Shown here: positions 1 to 9,924 of the stretch, in pieces | Layout of the letters: every line of letters starts with the position of its first letter | Position numbering within the stretch: the stretch's first letter is position 1 | DNA from: Myxococcota bacterium | GTDB lineage: Bacteria; Myxococcota_A; UBA9160; PR03 | Assembly (NCBI GenBank): GCA_041611735.1 | Contig: JBFIML010000057.1 | Location: forward strand, 1-18,326 | DNA length: 18,326 bases | Reading direction: 5' to 3' | Program-made: the position numbers and the translations under genes | The notes under the pieces: model-generated | Databases searched by the model: none | What the model was told of the DNA's origin: nothing | Seen by the model: only the letters and a program-made list of their open reading frames with translations

Positions 1-25
1 CCTGGTTCGAATCCAGGAGGGCCCA
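1..25 (+). tRNA. 3' part of a tRNA gene (T-arm, 3' acceptor strand, discriminator); the 5' part lies upstream of the window. Identity undetermined (Ile or Lys plausible)
   Basis: CCTGG(1-5)/CCAGG(13-17) is a perfect 5-bp T-stem around the canonical T-loop TTCGAAT(6-12). AGGGCCC(18-24) fits a 3' acceptor strand, A25 is the discriminator, and CCC follows rather than CCA. The anticodon is not in the window. Confidence 0.75.
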
Positions 26-29
26 CCCG
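5..29 (+). repeat. att-like core, copy 1 (25 bp, tRNA 3' end)
   Basis: GTTCGAATCCAGGAGGGCCCACCCG, identical to 3745-3769 and 6742-6766. Confidence 0.95.
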
Positions 30-31
30 CC

Positions 32-44
32 TAACCCTCTGAAT
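32..44 (+). promoter_or_regulatory. IHF-like box downstream of core 1
   Basis: TAACCCTCTGAAT resembles YAANNNNTTGATW. Near-identical CAACTCTCTGAAT sits at the same +3 offset after core 3. Confidence 0.45.
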
Positions 45-65
45 CGTCTCGACTTTTCAGCTGCG

Positions 66-93
66 CCTGGAAGAATCCAGGAGGTACCCACCG
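66..93 (+). repeat. Degenerate fourth copy of the tRNA 3' end/att core
   Basis: CCTGG-AAGAAT-CCAGG-AGGTACCCACCG versus CCTGG-TTCGAAT-CCAGG-AGGGCCCACCCG at 1-29. Confidence 0.75.
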
Positions 94-128
94 AACCACC
101 CGACATCGCGGAGGTTCTTCGGCGGTTT

Positions 129-149
129 CTTGTCGCTCGCTTGTCGCTC
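129..149 (+). repeat. Tandem TTGTCGC doublet (putative integrase arm-type sites), left end of cassette 1
   Basis: CTTGTCGCTC-G-CTTGTCGCTC, 11-bp period; same motif as 3668-3685 and 6664-6681. Confidence 0.65.
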
Positions 150-274
150 TAGCGGTGACAGCTCGCAGCCGAAGGGGCGAGATCCAAAGGCCTCGGTCGC
201 AGAGACGACTCGGCTCTCCCAGAGACTGTCGCCGGCCCGTACTACACTGGAGCGGCCACGAAGGGGCTCTCCAG

Positions 275-3200
275 ATGAGCTTCATCGACACCGTGCGCCG
301 AGCCCGGGAGCTCCTCCGGGAGGAAGGACGCATCAGCCTCCGCGGGCTGAAGCGCGAGTTCAGGCTCGACGACGAGGCCCTCGAGGAGCTGATCGAAGAG
401 CTGGTCGACATCCAACAGGTCGCGGCGCGGGAGGGGAAGGCCGTCGCGTGGATCGGCGGTGCAGCGCACGACCGGGCTGAGGCGGTCGCGAGGCCTTCAG
501 CGGGAGCCGAGCCCGCAGCCCAGGCCGAGCGCCGTCAACTCACGGTCATGTTCTGCGACCTGGTGGGCTCGACGAATCTCTCCCAGCGTCTCGATGCCGA
601 GGACCTGCGCGATGTCGTGCGCGCCTACCAGGAGTCGGTCTCCGCAGTCATCGAGCGTTACGAGGGCCACGTCGCCCAGTACCTGGGCGACGGCCTCCTC
701 GTCTACTTCGGCTATCCGCAGGCACACGAAGACGACGCAGAGCGTGCCGTGCGGGCCGGGCGCGAGATCCTGGCAACCCTGGGCACCTTGAACGACCGGC
801 TCGAGCCCGAGCACGGCATCCGCCTCGCTGCGCGGGTGGGCATCCACACCGGCCCCGTCGTGGTGGGCGAGATGGGAGGCGGGGCGAAGAGCGAGACCCT
901 CGCCCTCGGCGACACCACGAACATCGCGGCACGGCTTGAAGCCATCGCCCATCCCGACTCGGTCGTGATCAGCAGGGCGACGCTGCGACTCGTCCCTGGC
1001 CTCTTCGCAACGAAGGACCTCGGCACCCCGGCTCTGAAGGGGATCGCCGAACCGGTCCATGCCTACGCCGTGCTCCAGGCGACCGGCGTGCGCAGCCGCC
1101 TCGACGTGGACCCGAGCAAGCTCACTCCGCTCGTGGGACGCGACCAGGAGCTCGGGCTACTCGTCGAGCGCTGGGAGCAAGTCGGGGAGGGCGAGGGCCA
1201 GACAGTGCTCGTCTCGGGCGAGGCGGGTCTCGGGAAGTCGCGGCTGCTCCAGGCGTTCCGCGAGCAACTGGCCGAGACGCCACACGGCTGGCTCGAGTGC
1301 CGTTGCTCGCCCTACACCCAGGGCAGTGCGTTCCATCCTCTGATCGAGCTGATGGAGCAGGGCCTGGGCATTCAGGCGGGAGACGATCCGGAGACGAAGC
1401 TCGCGCGCCTGGAAGCGGGCCTCGCGGCCGCCGGTTTCCTGATCCCGGAGGTGGCTCCCCTCCTCGCACCGCTCCTCTCGCTTCCGCTCCCGGATCGCTA
1501 CCCGCCACTCCAGTTCAGTCCCGAGCTCCAGCGCAAGAAGACGATCGAGGCGCTGGTCGCCTGGACGTTCGGGCTCGGCGAGTCGCAGCCCGCGGTGCTG
1601 CTGGTGGAGGACCTCCACTGGTGCGATGCCTCGACGTTGGAGGCGATCGGCTGGCTGGTGGAGCAGAACCCCACCGCGAAGGTGCTCACGCTCTTGAGTT
1701 TCCGGCCCGACTTCGAGCCGCCCTGGCCGGCCCGCTCCCACGTCACACCCCTGGCGGTCAAGCGCCTCTCCCGCCGTCAGGCCACGGATCTGATCGGAGG
1801 GATGACGCACGACGCGCCGCTCCCAGGTGCGGTGGTGGAGCGCGTCGTCGAGCGGGCTGACGGAGTACCGCTCTTCCTGGAGGAACTCACCAAGACGGTG
1901 CTTGAGTCGGATCTCGTCGAGAAGCGCGAGGGCCACTACGAGCTTACCGGCCCGATCGCGGAGTTGGCCATTCCAGCCACGCTGCAGGACTCGCTGATGG
2001 CCCGCCTCGACCAGCTCGACGAGGGCAAGGGAGTCGCGCAGCTCGGCGCCGCCCTCGGGCGCGAGTTCTTCTACGAGCTGCTGCGCAGAGTCTCGCTCGA
2101 CGAGGAGTCGCGCCTGCGCGCCGGCCTGGCCCAGCTCGTGGACGCCGAGCTCCTCTACCAGCGGGGCTCCGTGCCTCGGGCGGAGTTCACCTTCAAGCAC
2201 GCGCTGATCCAGGAGACCGCATACCAGTCGCTCCTGCGCAGTGTGCGCCAGCCGCTCCACGCGCGCATCGCGAAGGTGCTGGAGGAGCAGTTCCCGGAGC
2301 GGGCCGAGGCGGAGCCCGAGGTCATAGCAAGGCACTACGACGAGGCCGGGCTGGCCGGGCCGGCCATCGCCCACTACCGACGCGCGGGCGAGGGGGCCAT
2401 GCAGCGCTCGGCCCACGAGGAGGCCATCGGTCACCTGCGGCGTGCGCTCCAGCTGCTCGCGACCCTGCCGGAGACTCGTGAGCGCCACCGGCAGGAGCTG
2501 GCCTTGCAGATCGCGCTCGGGACTCCGCTTGCCGGAGTCCGGGCGTGGTCGCATCCGGAGTACGAGCAGACTTTCGCCCGCGCGCGCGAGCTGGCTTCCC
2601 GGATCGGCGACGCGCCCGAGCTGGCGCGGGTGCTCGTGGGGATGGCGCAAGCGCCGTTCGTCCAGGGTGAGGTCACTGCCGCCGCCGAGATCGGGCGGCA
2701 GGCGCTGGCAGCTGCCGAGCGCACCGGAGACGTCTTCGACCAGCTCTCGGCCCACTACCAGATCGGCATGGCATTGCTCTGCCACGGCCGGGTCGCTCCG
2801 GGCCTGCGGCACTTCGAGCAGACCCTCGCGCTCTACGATCCCGCCGCGCACGGCGCTCGTGCCAACGCGATGGACATCAACCGCGGCCTCGCAGCCCGCG
2901 ATTTCGCGGGCCTCGCTCACGTGCACCTCGGCCACCCCGACCGGGCGCTGGCCGTGGTCGATCGGGCGGTCGAGCTGGCGCAGCACTCGGGGCACCCCGT
3001 CAATCGGGCGGACGCGCTCTTCCACGCCTTACTCGTCCACTTCGAACGCCGCGAGTTCGACCGGATGCGGGAGCGCGCCGAAGCGCTCATCGATCACTCC
3101 GAGCGGATCGGGCTTCCCTTCTACCTGAACTCCGGACACGTGCTTCGAGGGAGGGCACGGGTCGAAGCGGGCGAGGTCGAGGCGGGTGTCGAGGAGATGC

Positions 3201-3646
3201 GGCGCTCGGTCGACGAGCTGGCCCGGGCGGGCAGCGGGATCGTAGCGCCCTGCCGCCACGTGCTGCTCGCCGAGGGCCTCCAGAAGCTCGGACAGCCGGG
3301 CCGGGCCCTGGACGTCATCGAATCCGGTCTCGCGCAGGCGCAGGCCCAGAGCCAGCTCCTCAATGCTCCCGACCTCCACCGGCTTCACGCGGAGACCCTG
3401 CTCGACCTTGGACGGCATGCGGACGAGCCGGAGGCGCCCCTGCGCCGGGCCCTCGAGCTTGCACGACGGCAGGAGCAGAAGACCTACGAGCTCCGCGCCG
3501 CCACGTCCCTCGCCCACCTATGGCAGCGCCAGGGAAAGTCCACCGAGGCCAACGACCTTCTCCAGCCCGTCTACGACTGGTTCACCGAAGGCTTCGACAC
3601 GCGCGACGTGAGGGAAGCGAAGGCGCTGCTCGAGAATCTGTCCTAG
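275..3646 (+). CDS. Class III adenylate/guanylate cyclase - STAND (AAA_16-like) ATPase - TPR protein with a small N-terminal winged-helix-like domain (about 1123 aa)
   Basis: Likely start ATG275 (MSFIDTVRR). Cyclase motifs ERRQLTVMFCDLVGS, QYLGDG and GDTTNIAARL; Walker A GEAGLGKS; Walker B LLVEDLHW; FKHALIQETAY; helical repeats ending in the family-typical YDWFTEGFDT. Confidence 0.92.
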   Translation: MSFIDTVRRARELLREEGRISLRGLKREFRLDDEALEELIEELVDIQQVAAREGKAVAWIGGAAHDRAEAVARPSAGAEPAAQAERRQLTVMFCDLVGSTNLSQRLDAEDLRDVVRAYQESVSAVIERYEGHVAQYLGDGLLVYFGYPQAHEDDAERAVRAGREILATLGTLNDRLEPEHGIRLAARVGIHTGPVVVGEMGGGAKSETLALGDTTNIAARLEAIAHPDSVVISRATLRLVPGLFATKDLGTPALKGIAEPVHAYAVLQATGVRSRLDVDPSKLTPLVGRDQELGLLVERWEQVGEGEGQTVLVSGEAGLGKSRLLQAFREQLAETPHGWLECRCSPYTQGSAFHPLIELMEQGLGIQAGDDPETKLARLEAGLAAAGFLIPEVAPLLAPLLSLPLPDRYPPLQFSPELQRKKTIEALVAWTFGLGESQPAVLLVEDLHWCDASTLEAIGWLVEQNPTAKVLTLLSFRPDFEPPWPARSHVTPLAVKRLSRRQATDLIGGMTHDAPLPGAVVERVVERADGVPLFLEELTKTVLESDLVEKREGHYELTGPIAELAIPATLQDSLMARLDQLDEGKGVAQLGAALGREFFYELLRRVSLDEESRLRAGLAQLVDAELLYQRGSVPRAEFTFKHALIQETAYQSLLRSVRQPLHARIAKVLEEQFPERAEAEPEVIARHYDEAGLAGPAIAHYRRAGEGAMQRSAHEEAIGHLRRALQLLATLPETRERHRQELALQIALGTPLAGVRAWSHPEYEQTFARARELASRIGDAPELARVLVGMAQAPFVQGEVTAAAEIGRQALAAAERTGDVFDQLSAHYQIGMALLCHGRVAPGLRHFEQTLALYDPAAHGARANAMDINRGLAARDFAGLAHVHLGHPDRALAVVDRAVELAQHSGHPVNRADALFHALLVHFERREFDRMRERAEALIDHSERIGLPFYLNSGHVLRGRARVEAGEVEAGVEEMRRSVDELARAGSGIVAPCRHVLLAEGLQKLGQPGRALDVIESGLAQAQAQSQLLNAPDLHRLHAETLLDLGRHADEPEAPLRRALELARRQEQKTYELRAATSLAHLWQRQGKSTEANDLLQPVYDWFTEGFDTRDVREAKALLENLS

Positions 3647-3666
3647 CCGAGATCGCGACGCAGAAG

Positions 3667-3732
3667 CTTTTCGCTCGTTTGTCGCTCGCGAAGAACCGAC
3701 CCTGTAAGTGCCTGATCTACTTGTCTTTCTTC
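3667..3732 (+). promoter_or_regulatory. Conserved right-end signal block of cassette 1 (arm-type doublet, IHF-like box, CTTGTCTTTCTTC)
   Basis: TTTTCGC(3668-3674), TTGTCGC(3679-3685), TAAGTGCCTGATC(3705-3717) and CTTGTCTTTCTTC(3720-3732). Same order and internal spacing as the block before core 3. Confidence 0.65.
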
Positions 3733-3744
3733 GGATCCCTCCTC

Positions 3745-3769
3745 GTTCGAATCCAGGAGGGCCCACCCG
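3745..3769 (+). repeat. att-like core, copy 2
   Basis: Exact 25-bp match to 5-29. The 5' T-stem strand reads CCTCG, so the stem is broken and this is a fragment, not a tRNA. Confidence 0.95.
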
Positions 3770-3821
3770 TAGCGTCTTGCGTTCGCTCGAGCGTCGGTGC
3801 GGAGCGCGGCCAGCCCCGCCG

Positions 3822-4901
3822 CTATTCCGAGCGGCGGCGACCGGTCACGTAGACGGCGAAGATCGTCACAACCGTGAACGGGATCACGAACTCGAGCATC
3901 ACGGCGCTGAAGCGCGAGAGGGCAGCGTGCTGCTGCGAGGCAAACACGAGGTAGAGCGTGTACGCGACGTAGTACGCGACAAACAGCACTCCCTGCCAGC
4001 GCGGGATCTGGTGCTTGCGCGCCATCAACGGTAGACAGGCGGCGGCGACTGCTGTCATCACGGGCAGGTCGAAGCTCTCGATCGCGGGTGACACGATCAG
4101 GCCTCCGGGTGACGCCATCGCGCAGACACCGAGGATGCCGAGCAGATTGAAGATGTTGCTGCCGATCACGTTGCCGACGGCGATGTCGCGCTCGCCGCGG
4201 AGCGTCGCCATCAGCGAGGTCGCGACCTCTGGAAGACTGGTGCCCGCCGCGACGATCGTCAGCGCGATCACGGCCTCGTCCACGCTGAGCGCGCGTGCCG
4301 TCTCTACCGCCCCGGAGACCAGGAGGCGTGCGCCGACGACCAGCACCGCGAGCGATGCCACCACCACCCCGGCGTCGAGCACCATTCCGCGGCCGACCGA
4401 CGGCCCGGCCGGCACGCCGGCCTCGTACTCGTCGCGGATTGCCGCGCTCTCGCGCCGGCTCACGCGCACCGAATCCCAGCAGAACCACGCGAGGCCCGCC
4501 GCGAGGAGGCCCCCTTCGACAAGAACGATGCGCCCGTCGAAGCCGAAGAGCAGCACCACGAAGGAGACGGCGATCATCACGGGCACGTCGCGGAACACGA
4601 GCTGCTGCGCAACCGCGAGCGGCCTCAGCACGGCGCACACGCCGAGGATGGCCAGGACATTGAAGATGTTGCTTCCCACCACGTTGCCCACGGCGATGTC
4701 GGGCTTGCCGTCCGCCGTGGCCGCGACGCCGACCACCAGCTCGGGAGCGCTGGTGCCGAAGGCCACCACAGTGAGGCCGATCACGAGCGGCGCCACGCCG
4801 AGGCGGCGCGCGATGCCGGACGCGCCGCGCACGAGCCCCTCTCCACCGGCAACGAGGAGCGCGAGGCCACCTGCGAAGAGACCGAGCGTGGCGAATTCCA
4901 T
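3822..4901 (-). CDS. yrbG: Calcium/sodium (Ca2+/cation) antiporter, YrbG/CaCA family (359 aa)
   Basis: Two alpha-repeats: GLTVVAFGTSAPEL...GNVVGSNIFN and ALTIVAAGTSLPEV...GNVIGSNIFN; many hydrophobic segments. Confidence 0.93.
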   Translation of the reverse strand: MEFATLGLFAGGLALLVAGGEGLVRGASGIARRLGVAPLVIGLTVVAFGTSAPELVVGVAATADGKPDIAVGNVVGSNIFNVLAILGVCAVLRPLAVAQQLVFRDVPVMIAVSFVVLLFGFDGRIVLVEGGLLAAGLAWFCWDSVRVSRRESAAIRDEYEAGVPAGPSVGRGMVLDAGVVVASLAVLVVGARLLVSGAVETARALSVDEAVIALTIVAAGTSLPEVATSLMATLRGERDIAVGNVIGSNIFNLLGILGVCAMASPGGLIVSPAIESFDLPVMTAVAAACLPLMARKHQIPRWQGVLFVAYYVAYTLYLVFASQQHAALSRFSAVMLEFVIPFTVVTIFAVYVTGRRRSE

Positions 4902-5021
4902 GGCGGGTGATAATCACCTCCTGCGGTAGGCCAGCACGCGGGACTCGCCACTCGGCTACGCTTCTGCCACGTCTTGCGCGGGTTCGCCTGCCGCGCGGGC
5001 CAGGCGCTGGGGGGAAGTGGT

Positions 5022-6527
5022 ATGGTGGCGGTTCTCCTGCTCGTCGCACTGCTCCTGCTGCTGCTCAACGCATTCTTCGTCCTTGCGGAATTCGCCGCCG
5101 TGAAGATGCGGCCGACGCGCGTCGAAGAGCTCGCTCGCGCCGGGGATGCGCGCGCGCTGTTGCTCCGCCACGTCCAGGAACATCTCGACGAGTACCTTTC
5201 GGTGTGTCAGGTCGGCATCACGCTGGCGAGCATCGGTCTCGGGTTCGTGGGAGAGCCGGCGTTCGCTCGTCTGATCGAGCCCCTCGTCGCATGGTCAGGC
5301 GCGGCATCCGCGACGGTAGCGCACTCGCTGGCCATCGGGATCGCGTACGTGGTGATCTCCTTCCTGCACATCGTCCTGGGCGAGCTCGTGCCGAAGTCGA
5401 TCGCCATCCGCGGCGCCGAGCGAGCCGGCCTGTTCGTGGCGCGCCCGCTCCGCATCTTCCACCGCATCTTCCTGCTGCCGCTCGTGCTGCTGAACGGCTC
5501 GGCGAACTTCCTGCTGCGATGCCTGGGCTATCCCGCTCGGCCGATCGAGCGGGGCCCGTCGGAGCGCGAGCTCAAGATCACGCTGTCGGGCCTGCAATCC
5601 GAGGGCCGCATCTCGTTTCAGCGCGTGCTCCTGCTCGAGAACGTGTTCGATCTGGCCGGCATCAAGGTGAGGGACGAGATGCTCCCGCGCGACCGGGTCA
5701 GATCGCTGCGCATCGGGATGGCCTGGTCGGAGATCGAGCAGATCGTGCGCGACACCCGCTACTCGCGCTACCCGGTGCTCGACGCGTCCGAACGGGTCAT
5801 GGGGGTCCTGCACGTGAAGGATCTCCTGTACGAGGCGCTGGGACACGGACTCGAGATGCGGACGGACCTCTCGGCCGTGGCGCGACCCTGCTCGAGCGTC
5901 GACCCGGAGATGCCCCTCGAGCAGCTGCTGCGCGAGCTGCAGCGCAGCCGCTCCCATGGGGCCGCGGTGGTCGACGCGCGCGGCCGCTGGATCGGCTGGA
6001 TCACGCTGGAGGACGTGCTCGAGGAGATCGTCGGTACGATCGAGGACGAGTTCGAGCGCGAGCCGTCCTGCTTCCTGGGTGACGCGTTGCGCGAAGATCG
6101 CATCCTGCTGGACCTCGACGCGCCGTCGATCCGCGACGCGATCGCGGCGGCGATCCACGCGCTCGACCCTCTCGCCCTGCCCGCGCCTCCGGAGGAGATC
6201 ATCCGGCTGGCGCAGGAGCGGGAGGATGCGATGGGCACCTATCTCGGGAGCGGGGTGGCGCTGCCGCACGCGCGACTGCCGGGCGTCTCGCGTTCGCTGC
6301 TCGTCTTCGCGCGCTCTCTCGCCGGCGTTCCGGTCGCCTCGACGGGCGGGCGTGCCCACTTCCTCTTCATTCTGCTGACGCCGGCCACCCGTCCTCGCGA
6401 GCACGTGCGACTCGCGGCCCGTGTGGCCCACCTCTTCGAGAGCGAGTTCATTCCCGAGCGGCTGCGCCTCGCTGCGAGCCGCAGCGAGATCCTCGAGATC
6501 ATCCGGGAAGGCGACCTCAAACGTTGA
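5022..6527 (+). CDS. CNNM/DUF21 (HlyC/CorC family) membrane protein with a CBS pair and C-terminal PTS EIIA (Ntr/Fru-type) domain (about 501 aa)
   Basis: Likely start ATG5022. LNAFFVLAEFA, QVGITLASIGLG and LGELVPKSIA (DUF21); YSRYPV and GWITLEDVLEEIVGTIEDE (CBS); then EREDAMGTYLGSGVALPHAR (EIIA phospho-His motif). Confidence 0.88.
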   Translation: MVAVLLLVALLLLLLNAFFVLAEFAAVKMRPTRVEELARAGDARALLLRHVQEHLDEYLSVCQVGITLASIGLGFVGEPAFARLIEPLVAWSGAASATVAHSLAIGIAYVVISFLHIVLGELVPKSIAIRGAERAGLFVARPLRIFHRIFLLPLVLLNGSANFLLRCLGYPARPIERGPSERELKITLSGLQSEGRISFQRVLLLENVFDLAGIKVRDEMLPRDRVRSLRIGMAWSEIEQIVRDTRYSRYPVLDASERVMGVLHVKDLLYEALGHGLEMRTDLSAVARPCSSVDPEMPLEQLLRELQRSRSHGAAVVDARGRWIGWITLEDVLEEIVGTIEDEFEREPSCFLGDALREDRILLDLDAPSIRDAIAAAIHALDPLALPAPPEEIIRLAQEREDAMGTYLGSGVALPHARLPGVSRSLLVFARSLAGVPVASTGGRAHFLFILLTPATRPREHVRLAARVAHLFESEFIPERLRLAASRSEILEIIREGDLKR

Positions 6528-6558
6528 GCGCGACTGCTACGGATCGAGAATCCGAGCG

Positions 6559-6580
6559 GGATCTCGAGCCCTCGAGATCC
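6559..6580. other. Inverted repeat downstream of the CNNM gene (possible hairpin or pause site)
   Basis: GGATCTCGAG-CC-CTCGAGATCC, perfect 10-bp arms. There is no U-tract, so it is not a canonical intrinsic terminator. Confidence 0.4.
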
Positions 6581-6662
6581 GCAGACCTCCGATCGTGACG
6601 AGTCGAGGGGATCGAAGGAAGGGGCGGCGTCCGCAGAAGTGGGTCACGCGACGCGCTCGCAG

Positions 6663-6728
6663 CTTGTCGCCAACTTGTCGCCAGGCCCGATCCGCTCGCG
6701 CAACTACTTGGAATCCTTGTCTTTCTTC
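6663..6728 (+). promoter_or_regulatory. Conserved right-end signal block of cassette 2 (arm-type doublet, IHF-like box, CTTGTCTTTCTTC)
   Basis: TTGTCGC(6664-6670), TTGTCGC(6675-6681), CAACTACTTGGAA(6701-6713) and CTTGTCTTTCTTC(6716-6728). Confidence 0.65.
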
Positions 6729-6741
6729 CCCTTCCCGTCCG

Positions 6742-6766
6742 GTTCGAATCCAGGAGGGCCCACCCG
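6742..6766 (+). repeat. att-like core, copy 3
   Basis: Exact 25-bp match to 5-29. The 5' T-stem strand reads TCCGG (imperfect) and no D-arm or anticodon arm lies upstream. Confidence 0.95.
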
Positions 6767-6956
6767 TGCAACTCTCTGAATCCATGGCGGCTTTCAATCT
6801 CAGCTCAGATCCAACCAAGGACTCTGAAACCCTTGACCCGCGTTCGTCTCGCGGAACCGGTTGCCGCCGGCAGCGATAGGTGCTCGGAATGCGGGTACTC
6901 TCATCGCCTTCCGATCCCCCTGCTACGCTGCTTGGGCAGCACCAACAGGGTTCGCC

Positions 6957-7391
6957 ATGCCTCATCGCAGCGCCGACGAAAAGGTCGCCGAGGAGCTCTC
7001 GCGGCACGGTCTTCGTGCCACGCGCCAGCGCATTGCGGCGCTCCGCCTCCTCCGCCGCCTGAAGAGCCACCCGACTTCGGCGGAGCTCCACGCGCGGCTG
7101 CTTCCCGAGCACGAGAACTTGAGCCAGAAGACTGTCTACGAGATCCTGGATGCCCTGGTCCAGGCGGGCCTGGCTTCTCGCGTGACGGCGGTGGGTGGCC
7201 CGTACCGATACGAAGCGACGCCGGAACCCCACTATCACGCGACGTGTCGCGTTTGCGAGCGGCTGTACGACGTTCCAGCGGATGCGGACGCCCAGATCCG
7301 TGGGCGTGCGAAGCTGCCCGAAGGCTTCCAAGTGGAGAAGATCGACGTCACGATTCGCGGCGTATGCCTTCGCTGCCGGGACGAAATCTGA
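6957..7391 (+). CDS. Fur-family transcriptional repressor, PerR-like (144 aa)
   Basis: Likely start ATG6957. GLRATRQR, SHPTSAEL, LSQKTVYEIL, HYHATCRVC...LYDV and C-terminal CLRC (two CxxC, PerR-type Asp). Lies directly upstream of katG. Confidence 0.88.
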   Translation: MPHRSADEKVAEELSRHGLRATRQRIAALRLLRRLKSHPTSAELHARLLPEHENLSQKTVYEILDALVQAGLASRVTAVGGPYRYEATPEPHYHATCRVCERLYDVPADADAQIRGRAKLPEGFQVEKIDVTIRGVCLRCRDEI

Positions 7392-7434
7392 GGCGGATCG
7401 CCCCAGTCCGGCGACAGGGCCGATTGCCCTCGCC

Positions 7435-9795
<2,361 letters not shown>

Positions 9796-9924
9796 CCGTG
9801 GGGAGGTAGGCGCTCGAGGTCGACTACGCCCAAGGGCCGCCTCGACGAACTCGCCGACGGGCGGGTGCGGCGGTCGCCCGGTTCGAGCATGCTTGCGGGT
9901 TCGACCGAGCGAGAGGATCCCCCC

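Follow-up and report, generated by a model that had tools for sequence, protein, structure and literature searches.

Elements that share an integration site can accumulate there in tandem. The best match to the locus described here is the accretion of elements related to ICESt1 and ICESt3 in Streptococcus thermophilus (Pavlovic 2004; Bellanger 2011; both cited by PMC5704250). In the model given there an element integrates and decays to a cis-mobilizable element (CIME), after which a further element accretes. Tycheposons of Prochlorococcus are described as forming arrays that are separated only by partial tRNAs and contain fragmented integrases (bioRxiv 10.1101/2020.12.28.424599). The Islander survey gives 125 tandems of at least two islands, 4 of them of at least three (PMC4383910), and tandem islands at ssrA in Dehalococcoides are the topic of PMC3146451. 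In the myxophage Mx8, attP lies inside the sequence that encodes the integrase IntP (PMC6070905; also PMC4383910).

Here we analyze an 18,326-nt contig (JBFIML010000057.1; the window) of an uncultured marine Myxococcota bacterium, whose first 6766 nt hold three copies of a tRNA 3' end framing two small units, unit 1 (30-3744) and unit 2 (3770-6741). An earlier note, made from the letters of this DNA alone, had taken the units for non-autonomous cassettes served in trans by one integrase, on a capture platform analogous to an integron. We consider it likely that positions 1-6766 are instead the distal part of a tandem site-specific accretion array at a tRNA-Met(CAT) gene, from which integrases were then deleted, leaving CIME-like units. 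On this, our best reading, the locus is a case of something already known, genome growth by stacked integrative islands, and not a new cassette-capture machine. The tRNA-derived att sites, the integrase-free units and an integrase at the tRNA survive from the earlier interpretation; the integron-like machinery finds no support.

The tRNA-Met gene, its integrase and the att sites

The window is the whole of contig C57 of a 4.09-Mb genome (G000; 118 contigs, 95% complete). The 25-mer GTTCGAATCCAGGAGGGCCCACCCG is found exactly, on the + strand, at 5-29, 3745-3769 and 6742-6766 (core copies 1, 2 and 3), with spacings of 3740 and 2997 nt as the earlier note had it; 200 dinucleotide-preserving shuffles gave no match, even with 3 mismatches allowed. 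Copy 1 is part of a longer 3' fragment of tRNA-Met(CAT), the T-arm and the 3' strand of the acceptor, which occupies 1-29 (+) at the very start of the contig and is identical to 1518-1546 (minus strand) of another contig, C64. ARAGORN calls no tRNA in the window because the contig starts inside the T-arm. A fourth exact 25-mer in the genome, on C64, is the 3' end of an intact tRNA-Met(CAT), and ARAGORN finds no other tRNA in the genome whose 3' end matches the core. The name follows the anticodon, and the gene may encode elongator tRNA-Met or a lysidine-type tRNA-Ile. With respect to what Islander looks for, then, the displaced fragments are exact and direct and an intact tRNA exists, on a contig that is not joined to C57.

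The five nucleotides before the core read CCTGG at copy 1, completing the T-stem, CCTCG at copy 2 and TCCGG at copy 3, so it is true that only copy 1 has a perfect T-stem. However, CCTGG also precedes the core at seven of 13 aligned right-end sites in this genome and its relatives, and a perfect T-stem is therefore no proof of a real tRNA end. Copies 2 and 3 are each preceded on the left by ~105 nt, and these two stretches are homologous.

The search that the earlier note had proposed, for further 25-mers and for a tyrosine integrase near the tRNA, thus succeeded on C64 in both respects. The tRNA is directly adjoined there by an open reading frame (ORF) for a 415-aa tyrosine recombinase (PF00589, E 9e-15). 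The repeats are tRNA-derived att sites of tyrosine-integrase elements, as had been proposed. The ORF points toward the tRNA, reads through a repeat doublet and the core, and has its stop inside the tRNA. The doublet, TTGTCGCCAACTTGTCGC, begins 63 nt past the core start, within the 3' end of the integrase gene, and the last ~32 codons cover doublet and core, so that attP lies within the int frame. Residues 1-125 matched no Pfam or NCBIfam model. The best NCBIfam matches are generic XerC- and XerA-like models, all far below their cut-offs, and the integron-integrase model TIGR02249 scores only 27.8 bits against a cut-off of 265; the repeats do not resemble attC, and the integron analogy is not supported. 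Matches at E <= 1e-20 occur in 62 of the 193 genomes of the order, and proteins 90-92% identical to that of C64 are present in metagenome-assembled genomes (MAGs) of three other families of the order, an identity from which we judge the integrase family to be horizontally mobile. The C64 integrase is the only member of the family found in the source genome, which holds nine PF00589 matches in all.

Mapping of cores, doublets, tRNAs and integrase matches on the loci of integrase relatives revealed a regular att architecture. On the integrase side (P' arm), core start and doublet start are 63 nt apart at every site examined (8 sites, and 9 loci of which three repeat sites among the 8). On the far side (P arm), the doublet starts 77 or 78 nt before the core start at 14 of 14 sites, window copies 2 and 3 included. 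The doublets (TTGTCGC-N4-TTGTCGC) have direct orientation on both arms, and P and P' arms align across genomes. The TTGTCGC doublets are genuine arm-like signals. Repeats of arm type, set at fixed distances from the core on either side, are what lambda-type, arm-dependent recombination would lead one to expect, and we infer from the sequences that the doublets are arm-type sites of a lambda-like integrase, to be bound by its N-terminal domain.

Three doublet subtypes were seen, CCAA, TCG and GGTGG (TTGTCGCCAA, TTGTCGCTCG and TTGTCGGTGG, respectively). Both arms carry the same subtype in all three intact two-core islands, those of G041:C3 (18.6 kb), G026:C62 (17.4 kb) and G026:C14 (14.2 kb). 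Doublets of the CCAA/CCAG type go with integrases 61-100% identical to the C64 protein, TCG doublets with integrases 63-65% identical to it, and GGTGG with one at 63%; by these comparisons the subtype tracks the integrase clade. The C64 integrase is itself of the CCAA type. The intact islands have in common only the right arm and an integrase module of ~1.5 kb (2.9 kb for the pair G041 and G160), the remainder being variable cargo.

Similar signals were seen at other tRNAs. Two more exact TTGTCGC-N4-TTGTCGC doublets occur in the source genome, in C92 (~1022) and C5 (~13557, minus strand). At ~63 nt from each there is a piece of another tRNA's T-arm in antisense (GGGAATCGAACCCG), and the doublets were probably left by sister elements whose insertion runs the other way. 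At two loci of relatives (L094 and L096), integrases 57-61% identical to that of C64 sit at tRNA-Glu(TTC), with adjoining doublets in opposite orientation and of altered type (TTGTCCC in L094, TTGTCGG in L096); here the integrase family is retargeted to another tRNA with altered arm motifs. The source genome also has displaced 3' fragments of tRNA-Arg(TCT), with the copy only 2.45 kb away (C39, 2855-5365), and of tRNA-Arg(CCT), tRNA-Gly(CCC) and tRNA-Thr(CGT) (loci C58/C32, C85/C72 and C5 22684-41753), the tRNA-Thr repeat being accompanied by an integrase.

The units between the cores

Neither unit contains an integrase gene. Pfam applied to the three main ORFs gave no PF00589 or other integrase-like ORF in 30-3744 or 3770-6741, and tblastn of the family integrase against 1-6766 returned only core-encoded residues and a short extension at copy 2, in agreement with the earlier note. 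All that the units hold between their att sequences is a cyclase-ATPase, a Ca/Na antiporter and a CNNM-EIIA protein, the integrase-free cargo by which a CIME is recognized. Their right arms resemble those of islands: over 106-137 nt they share 83-84% identity with elements of G041 and G026 at the right end, among them the integrase-bearing islands of 18.6 and 17.4 kb.

In unit 1, copy 1 is followed by a 36-nt stretch (30-65, +) that resembles the core-proximal part of the P' arm of TCG-type elements and also the flank after copy 3 (~90% over the first 16 nt); we read it as a stub of yet another element. Next comes a decayed core at 66-93 (+; CCTGG plus AAGAATCCAGGAGGTACCCACCG), recognizable by fuzzy matching with 4 substitutions and 2 insertions, which is the left core of the unit. 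A P'-type doublet of TCG subtype, TTGTCGCTCGCTTGTCGC, lies at 129-149 (+; perfect doublet 130-147), 38 nt past the decayed core where intact sites have 41 nt. The right (P) arm (3633-3744, +) has its TCG-subtype doublet, TTTTCGCTCGTTTGTCGC, at 3668, 77 nt before core copy 2 (3745-3769, +), and is 83% identical to G041:C3 61-196. Judged by matching subtype, the unit retains both ends of a single element, the decayed core with its doublet on the left and the doublet with its exact core on the right.

The cargo of unit 1 is one gene (275-3646, +) for a 1123-aa signalling protein with class III cyclase, AAA_16 ATPase and TPR domains (Pfam), occupying the place where an integrase would be. Its stop codon ends at 3646, 22 nt before the doublet, which bears out the ~20 bp from the end signals given earlier. 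The gene has a paralogue of 73% nucleotide identity in the same genome (C60, 1-1927) and many relatives at 64-78% across the order; among NCBIfam models the protein comes closest to the TOMM system kinase/cyclase fusion, with 610 bits where the cut-off is 706. A + strand similarity of integrase residues 295-372 to window positions 170-394, obtained with a small database and composition correction off, was dismissed as spurious, because a search of the whole window did not return it.

In unit 2 both flanking cores are exact and a right arm is present. That arm (6652-6741, +) carries a CCAA-subtype doublet, TTGTCGCCAACTTGTCGC, at 6664, 78 nt before core copy 3 (6742-6766, +), and shares 83-84% identity with the integrase-bearing islands of G041:C3 and G026:C62 at their right ends. 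No integrase-side doublet was found to the right of copy 2 in the unit. The ~45 nt at 3770-3814 (+) are similar to the arm and may be a remnant of its core-proximal part without the doublet: on the reverse strand, integrase residues 387-414 match 3814-3731 (E 5e-5 against the window), a stretch that takes in copy 2 along with the 14 nt left of it. The match covers 17 of 28 residues, of which the core itself encodes 9. The cargo consists of a Ca2+/Na+ antiporter (Na_Ca_ex, 359 aa; 3822-4901, -) and a CNNM-CBS transporter fused to a phosphotransferase system EIIA-2 domain (501 aa; 5022-6527, +), both assigned by Pfam. The C-terminal fusion of a PtsN-like EIIA-2 domain to a CNNM-CBS transporter is an unusual regulatory fusion; a metagenome scan with this protein found only relatives 42-54% identical, and no strain-level variants. 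The GC contents of units 1 and 2, 69.3% and 68.6%, lie below the genome mean of 72.3% but only in the 9th-11th percentile, so that composition alone says little.

To the right of copy 3 there is probably a third unit. The flank at 6767-6860 (+) is P'-like and includes a decayed doublet (TTGACCC..TTCGTCTC) at 6833-6850. Aligned by eye, this doublet agrees at 20 of 25 positions with one of the form TTGTCCC-N4-TTGTCCC that lies upstream of fur-katG in G026:C52; the region looks like another junction rather than chromosomal flank. Genes for a Fur-family regulator (6957-7391) and KatG (7477-9795) follow, and 6957-9795 (+) is the probable third integrase-free unit. The block 6902-9818 is 88% identical at the nucleotide level to G026:C52, in a MAG of another family, and at 66.9% its GC content is the lowest of the window (2.5th percentile of 3-kb genome windows). 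By tblastn, no family integrase lies beside fur-katG in the window or within 17 kb around the G026:C52 copy, and the flank of fur-katG is not syntenic in relatives.

Arrays in relatives and rival explanations

The core, with at most one mismatch, occurs in 74 of the 193 genomes of the order, 17 of which carry 2 to 15 copies. We examined twelve intervals that are bounded on one contig by two cores or by the tRNA and a core. Four have an integrase-like gene (G041:C3, the B-C interval of G026:C62, G026:C14 and G106:C6, the last by a C-terminal match only). The other eight are integrase-free: the two of C57, 3.7 kb in G170, 5.4 kb in G026:C62, 5.7 and 7.1 kb in G026:C69, 1.6 kb in G005:C75 and 0.75 kb in G160. 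The check for integrases was by Pfam, applied in five of the eight to every ORF of 130 aa or more and in the two C57 units to the main ORFs; for G160 it was by tblastn only. The cargo of the integrase-free intervals in relatives is ordinary: CsbD-like protein, GH5-like hydrolase, APH-type kinase, short-chain dehydrogenase, MFS transporter, TetR regulator, P450, Na/H exchanger, CBS protein and RES-domain protein. The integrase-free units of G170, G026:C62 and G026:C69 have well-kept right arms and no integrase-side doublet, as in unit 2.

Beside some cores, truncated integrases are found: residues 7-65 in G005:C75, 310-413 in G026:C69, 362-414 in L100, and two fragments in L099. Together with the right-arm identity to islands, these come close to what the earlier note had itself named as grounds for giving up its reading, namely relatives that reveal the units as deletion remnants of integrase-bearing islands.

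Two of these loci deserve mention for other reasons. The genome G026 is an extreme hotspot, with 15 core copies (at most one mismatch) on 11 contigs, C62, C69 and C14 among them, and 9 integrase matches. We considered its C69 array as proof of unit-level exchange, since modules recur elsewhere at 81-92%, but rejected it: the inspected junctions lack cores, and some modules look like native neighbours of tRNA-Met, which indicates mosaicism and no clear site-specific cassette exchange. In G005:C75 (locus L052), the 1.6-kb interval (3937-5487) between tRNA-Met and a second core holds the RES-domain ORF, possibly part of a RES-Xre toxin-antitoxin pair, and is followed by the integrase stub.

We propose that one family of Myxococcota elements, each with variable cargo and a tyrosine integrase whose frame runs through its own attP, would have produced the array. 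The attP of such an element would consist of the tRNA 3'-end core, the integrase-side doublet at +63 nt and the far-side doublet 77-78 nt before the core. Elements would integrate in succession, with crossover in the tRNA's T-arm region, each leaving a duplicate of the tRNA 3' end. Deletions would then remove the integrases and, in unit 2, the integrase-side doublet too; since the doublet sits inside the integrase frame, loss of the integrase should usually take the P' arm along. The remainder would be cargo framed by core copies and right arms, matching the CIME description. Unit 1 would be the shell of a TCG-subtype element and unit 2 that of a CCAA-subtype element, with fur-katG probably a third, while the C64 tRNA with its intact CCAA-subtype element is probably the tRNA-proximal and newest member. 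For the order of events, for the adjacency of C64 and C57 (plausibly C64, a gap, then C57) and for the present mobility of the units, we argue indirectly.

Several observations weigh against this account. No integrase fragment of their own lies within units 1 or 2, so that integrase loss is deduced from arm remnants and from relatives, and the arm remnant to the right of copy 2 is weak evidence. All three window cores have stayed exact along their 25 nt; one would not expect this of old inert remnants, and it could reflect recent arrival or continued use. The sharing of fur-katG across families without an integrase would be easier to understand if small units travel, and is the best hint that they may. 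No conjugation, mobilisation or phage module was identified in the intact related islands, which leaves unproven an origin of the CIME-like units from an integrative and conjugative or integrative and mobilizable element. Finally, most contig ends of the assembly share a 141-nt overlap with another (104 directed pairs), but there is no such partner for the start of C57 or for the integrase-side end of C64, 1519 nt past the tRNA. Searches of the source genome for the interior of the C64 element with the islands of G041, G026 and G160 found only the 1.5-kb integrase module in common and did not identify the piece between C64 and C57. An empty site was sought in relatives as well, where homologues of the gene upstream of the C64 tRNA are ~40% identical and none is beside tRNA-Met.

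The absence of overlap between C64 and C57 also speaks for a different anchoring, in which copy 1 is the end of a second complete tRNA-Met just upstream and the window array is unconnected to the C64 element. The full T-stem of copy 1, and a contig start exactly at the T-stem, would fit this too. We think it rather improbable, because the T-stem is not diagnostic and because ARAGORN's single tRNA with this 3' end is the one on C64. A contig built separately with short words, from run X1, also starts at position 1, which we read as an effect of the 30-nt repeat shared with C64 and as silent on what lies upstream. One might further suspect that assembly or binning united unrelated pieces at a shared tRNA fragment, given that this MAG has many contig breaks at tRNAs. 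Such an artefact is hardly credible: the apparent final word length of the assembly, 141 nt, is far above the 25-30 nt of the repeat; separately built X1 contigs bridge copy 2 (3573-4500) and copy 3 (5022-7188), although X1 is possibly the source sample; 92% of sampled words of 1-7000 occur in a run from another study; and each copy is flanked by arms that have homologues in other genomes.

There remains the integron-like capture platform, on which the units would be working non-autonomous cassettes, excised and inserted in trans by the resident integrase at tRNA-derived att sites. Exact cores and well-kept right arms in the integrase-free units of C57, G170, G026:C62 and G026:C69, the predominance of integrase-free intervals (eight of 12), the intact family integrase at the tRNA, the CCAA subtype that the right arm of unit 2 shares with it, and the doublet-armed fur-katG unit in two families would all suit such a platform. 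Against it, the TCG arms of unit 1 differ from the subtype of the only family integrase found in the genome, the left core of that unit is decayed, and unit 2 and its counterparts in G170, G026:C62 and G026:C69 lack the integrase-side doublet. The right arms resemble those of islands, the truncated integrases of relatives indicate decay under way, and the integrase is not of the integron type. In the 193 genomes the best homologues of unit 1 and 2 genes are paralogue-like, at 77-78% nucleotide identity, and none is on a core-bearing contig. We therefore regard this platform as unlikely, and equally doubt the broader proposal that integrase-free, arm-bearing units of 1-3 genes are a currency of exchange and the tRNA-Met loci of marine Myxococcota cassette platforms. 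Assembled contigs drop rare variants, so contig joints are uninformative on excision; among those listed from contigs of public runs, a noisy set at 85% likeness, none unites two att sites.

Comparison with described systems

Read as an accretion array with its integrases deleted, the locus is a clean example, in an uncultured lineage, of a tRNA hotspot that gathers genes for signalling, ion transport and peroxide defence by integration and decay. It also defines a Myxococcota integrative family whose attP grammar is readable: a core, and doublets at fixed spacing whose three subtypes go with integrase clades. Islands in MAGs can be delimited by means of this grammar. Were the units still mobile, they would represent a second route of cassette capture besides integrons; the evidence points to remnants.

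The sequence of integration, decay to a CIME and accretion of a further element, as modelled in PMC5704250, fits the locus. As described there for CIMEs, the units have no integration genes, keep att sequences at least in part and, at the 3' end of the target gene, are probably lined up behind an integrase-bearing element. With regard to att retention, in unit 1 the left core is decayed, the left doublet intact and the right site complete, and unit 2 has exact cores and the right arm but no left doublet. Unlike in S. thermophilus, a Firmicute, the host is an uncultured marine Myxococcota bacterium and the target is tRNA-Met; the parent elements have no identified conjugation module, unit 2 keeps one arm, and mobilisation in cis would hold here only by analogy.

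The locus, taken together with those of its relatives, shares with tycheposon arrays, as these are described, the fragmented integrases and extra partial tRNAs that mark older events, newcomers being thought to push older elements away from the tRNA, and a cargo of ordinary adaptive genes. It differs in having no replication module that we could see and in its fixed-spacing TTGTCGC doublets, which are specific to the Myxococcota family. As in the tDNA islands of Islander, an intact tDNA, here on the separate contig C64, would be accompanied by displaced 3' fragments in direct orientation, with a repeat that covers the T-stem region. However, each member of an Islander array must have its own integrase, by the account in PMC4383910, which is true of the C64 element only; units 1 and 2 would be rejected or merged and so go uncounted, and island finders with this rule miss such units.

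The C64 integrase gene resembles Mx8 intP, from the same host phylum, in that its ORF spans doublet and core and gains a new 3' end on integration. Its protein had no close match among phage integrases: of 50,697 phage records 282 matched, all below 60% identity, and the best 12 of these 282 are mycobacteriophage integrases at ~24-25% identity; Mx8 is not among the matches listed. With integrons, finally, the locus has in common an ordered stack of small integrase-free units, possibly with one integrase at a fixed end. Unlike in integrons, the recombinase is of a type other than IntI; direct tRNA fragments, with direct-repeat doublets ~78 nt upstream, stand in place of folded attC sites; unit 2 consists of two divergent genes with their own intergenic region; and the units look like shells of once autonomous elements.

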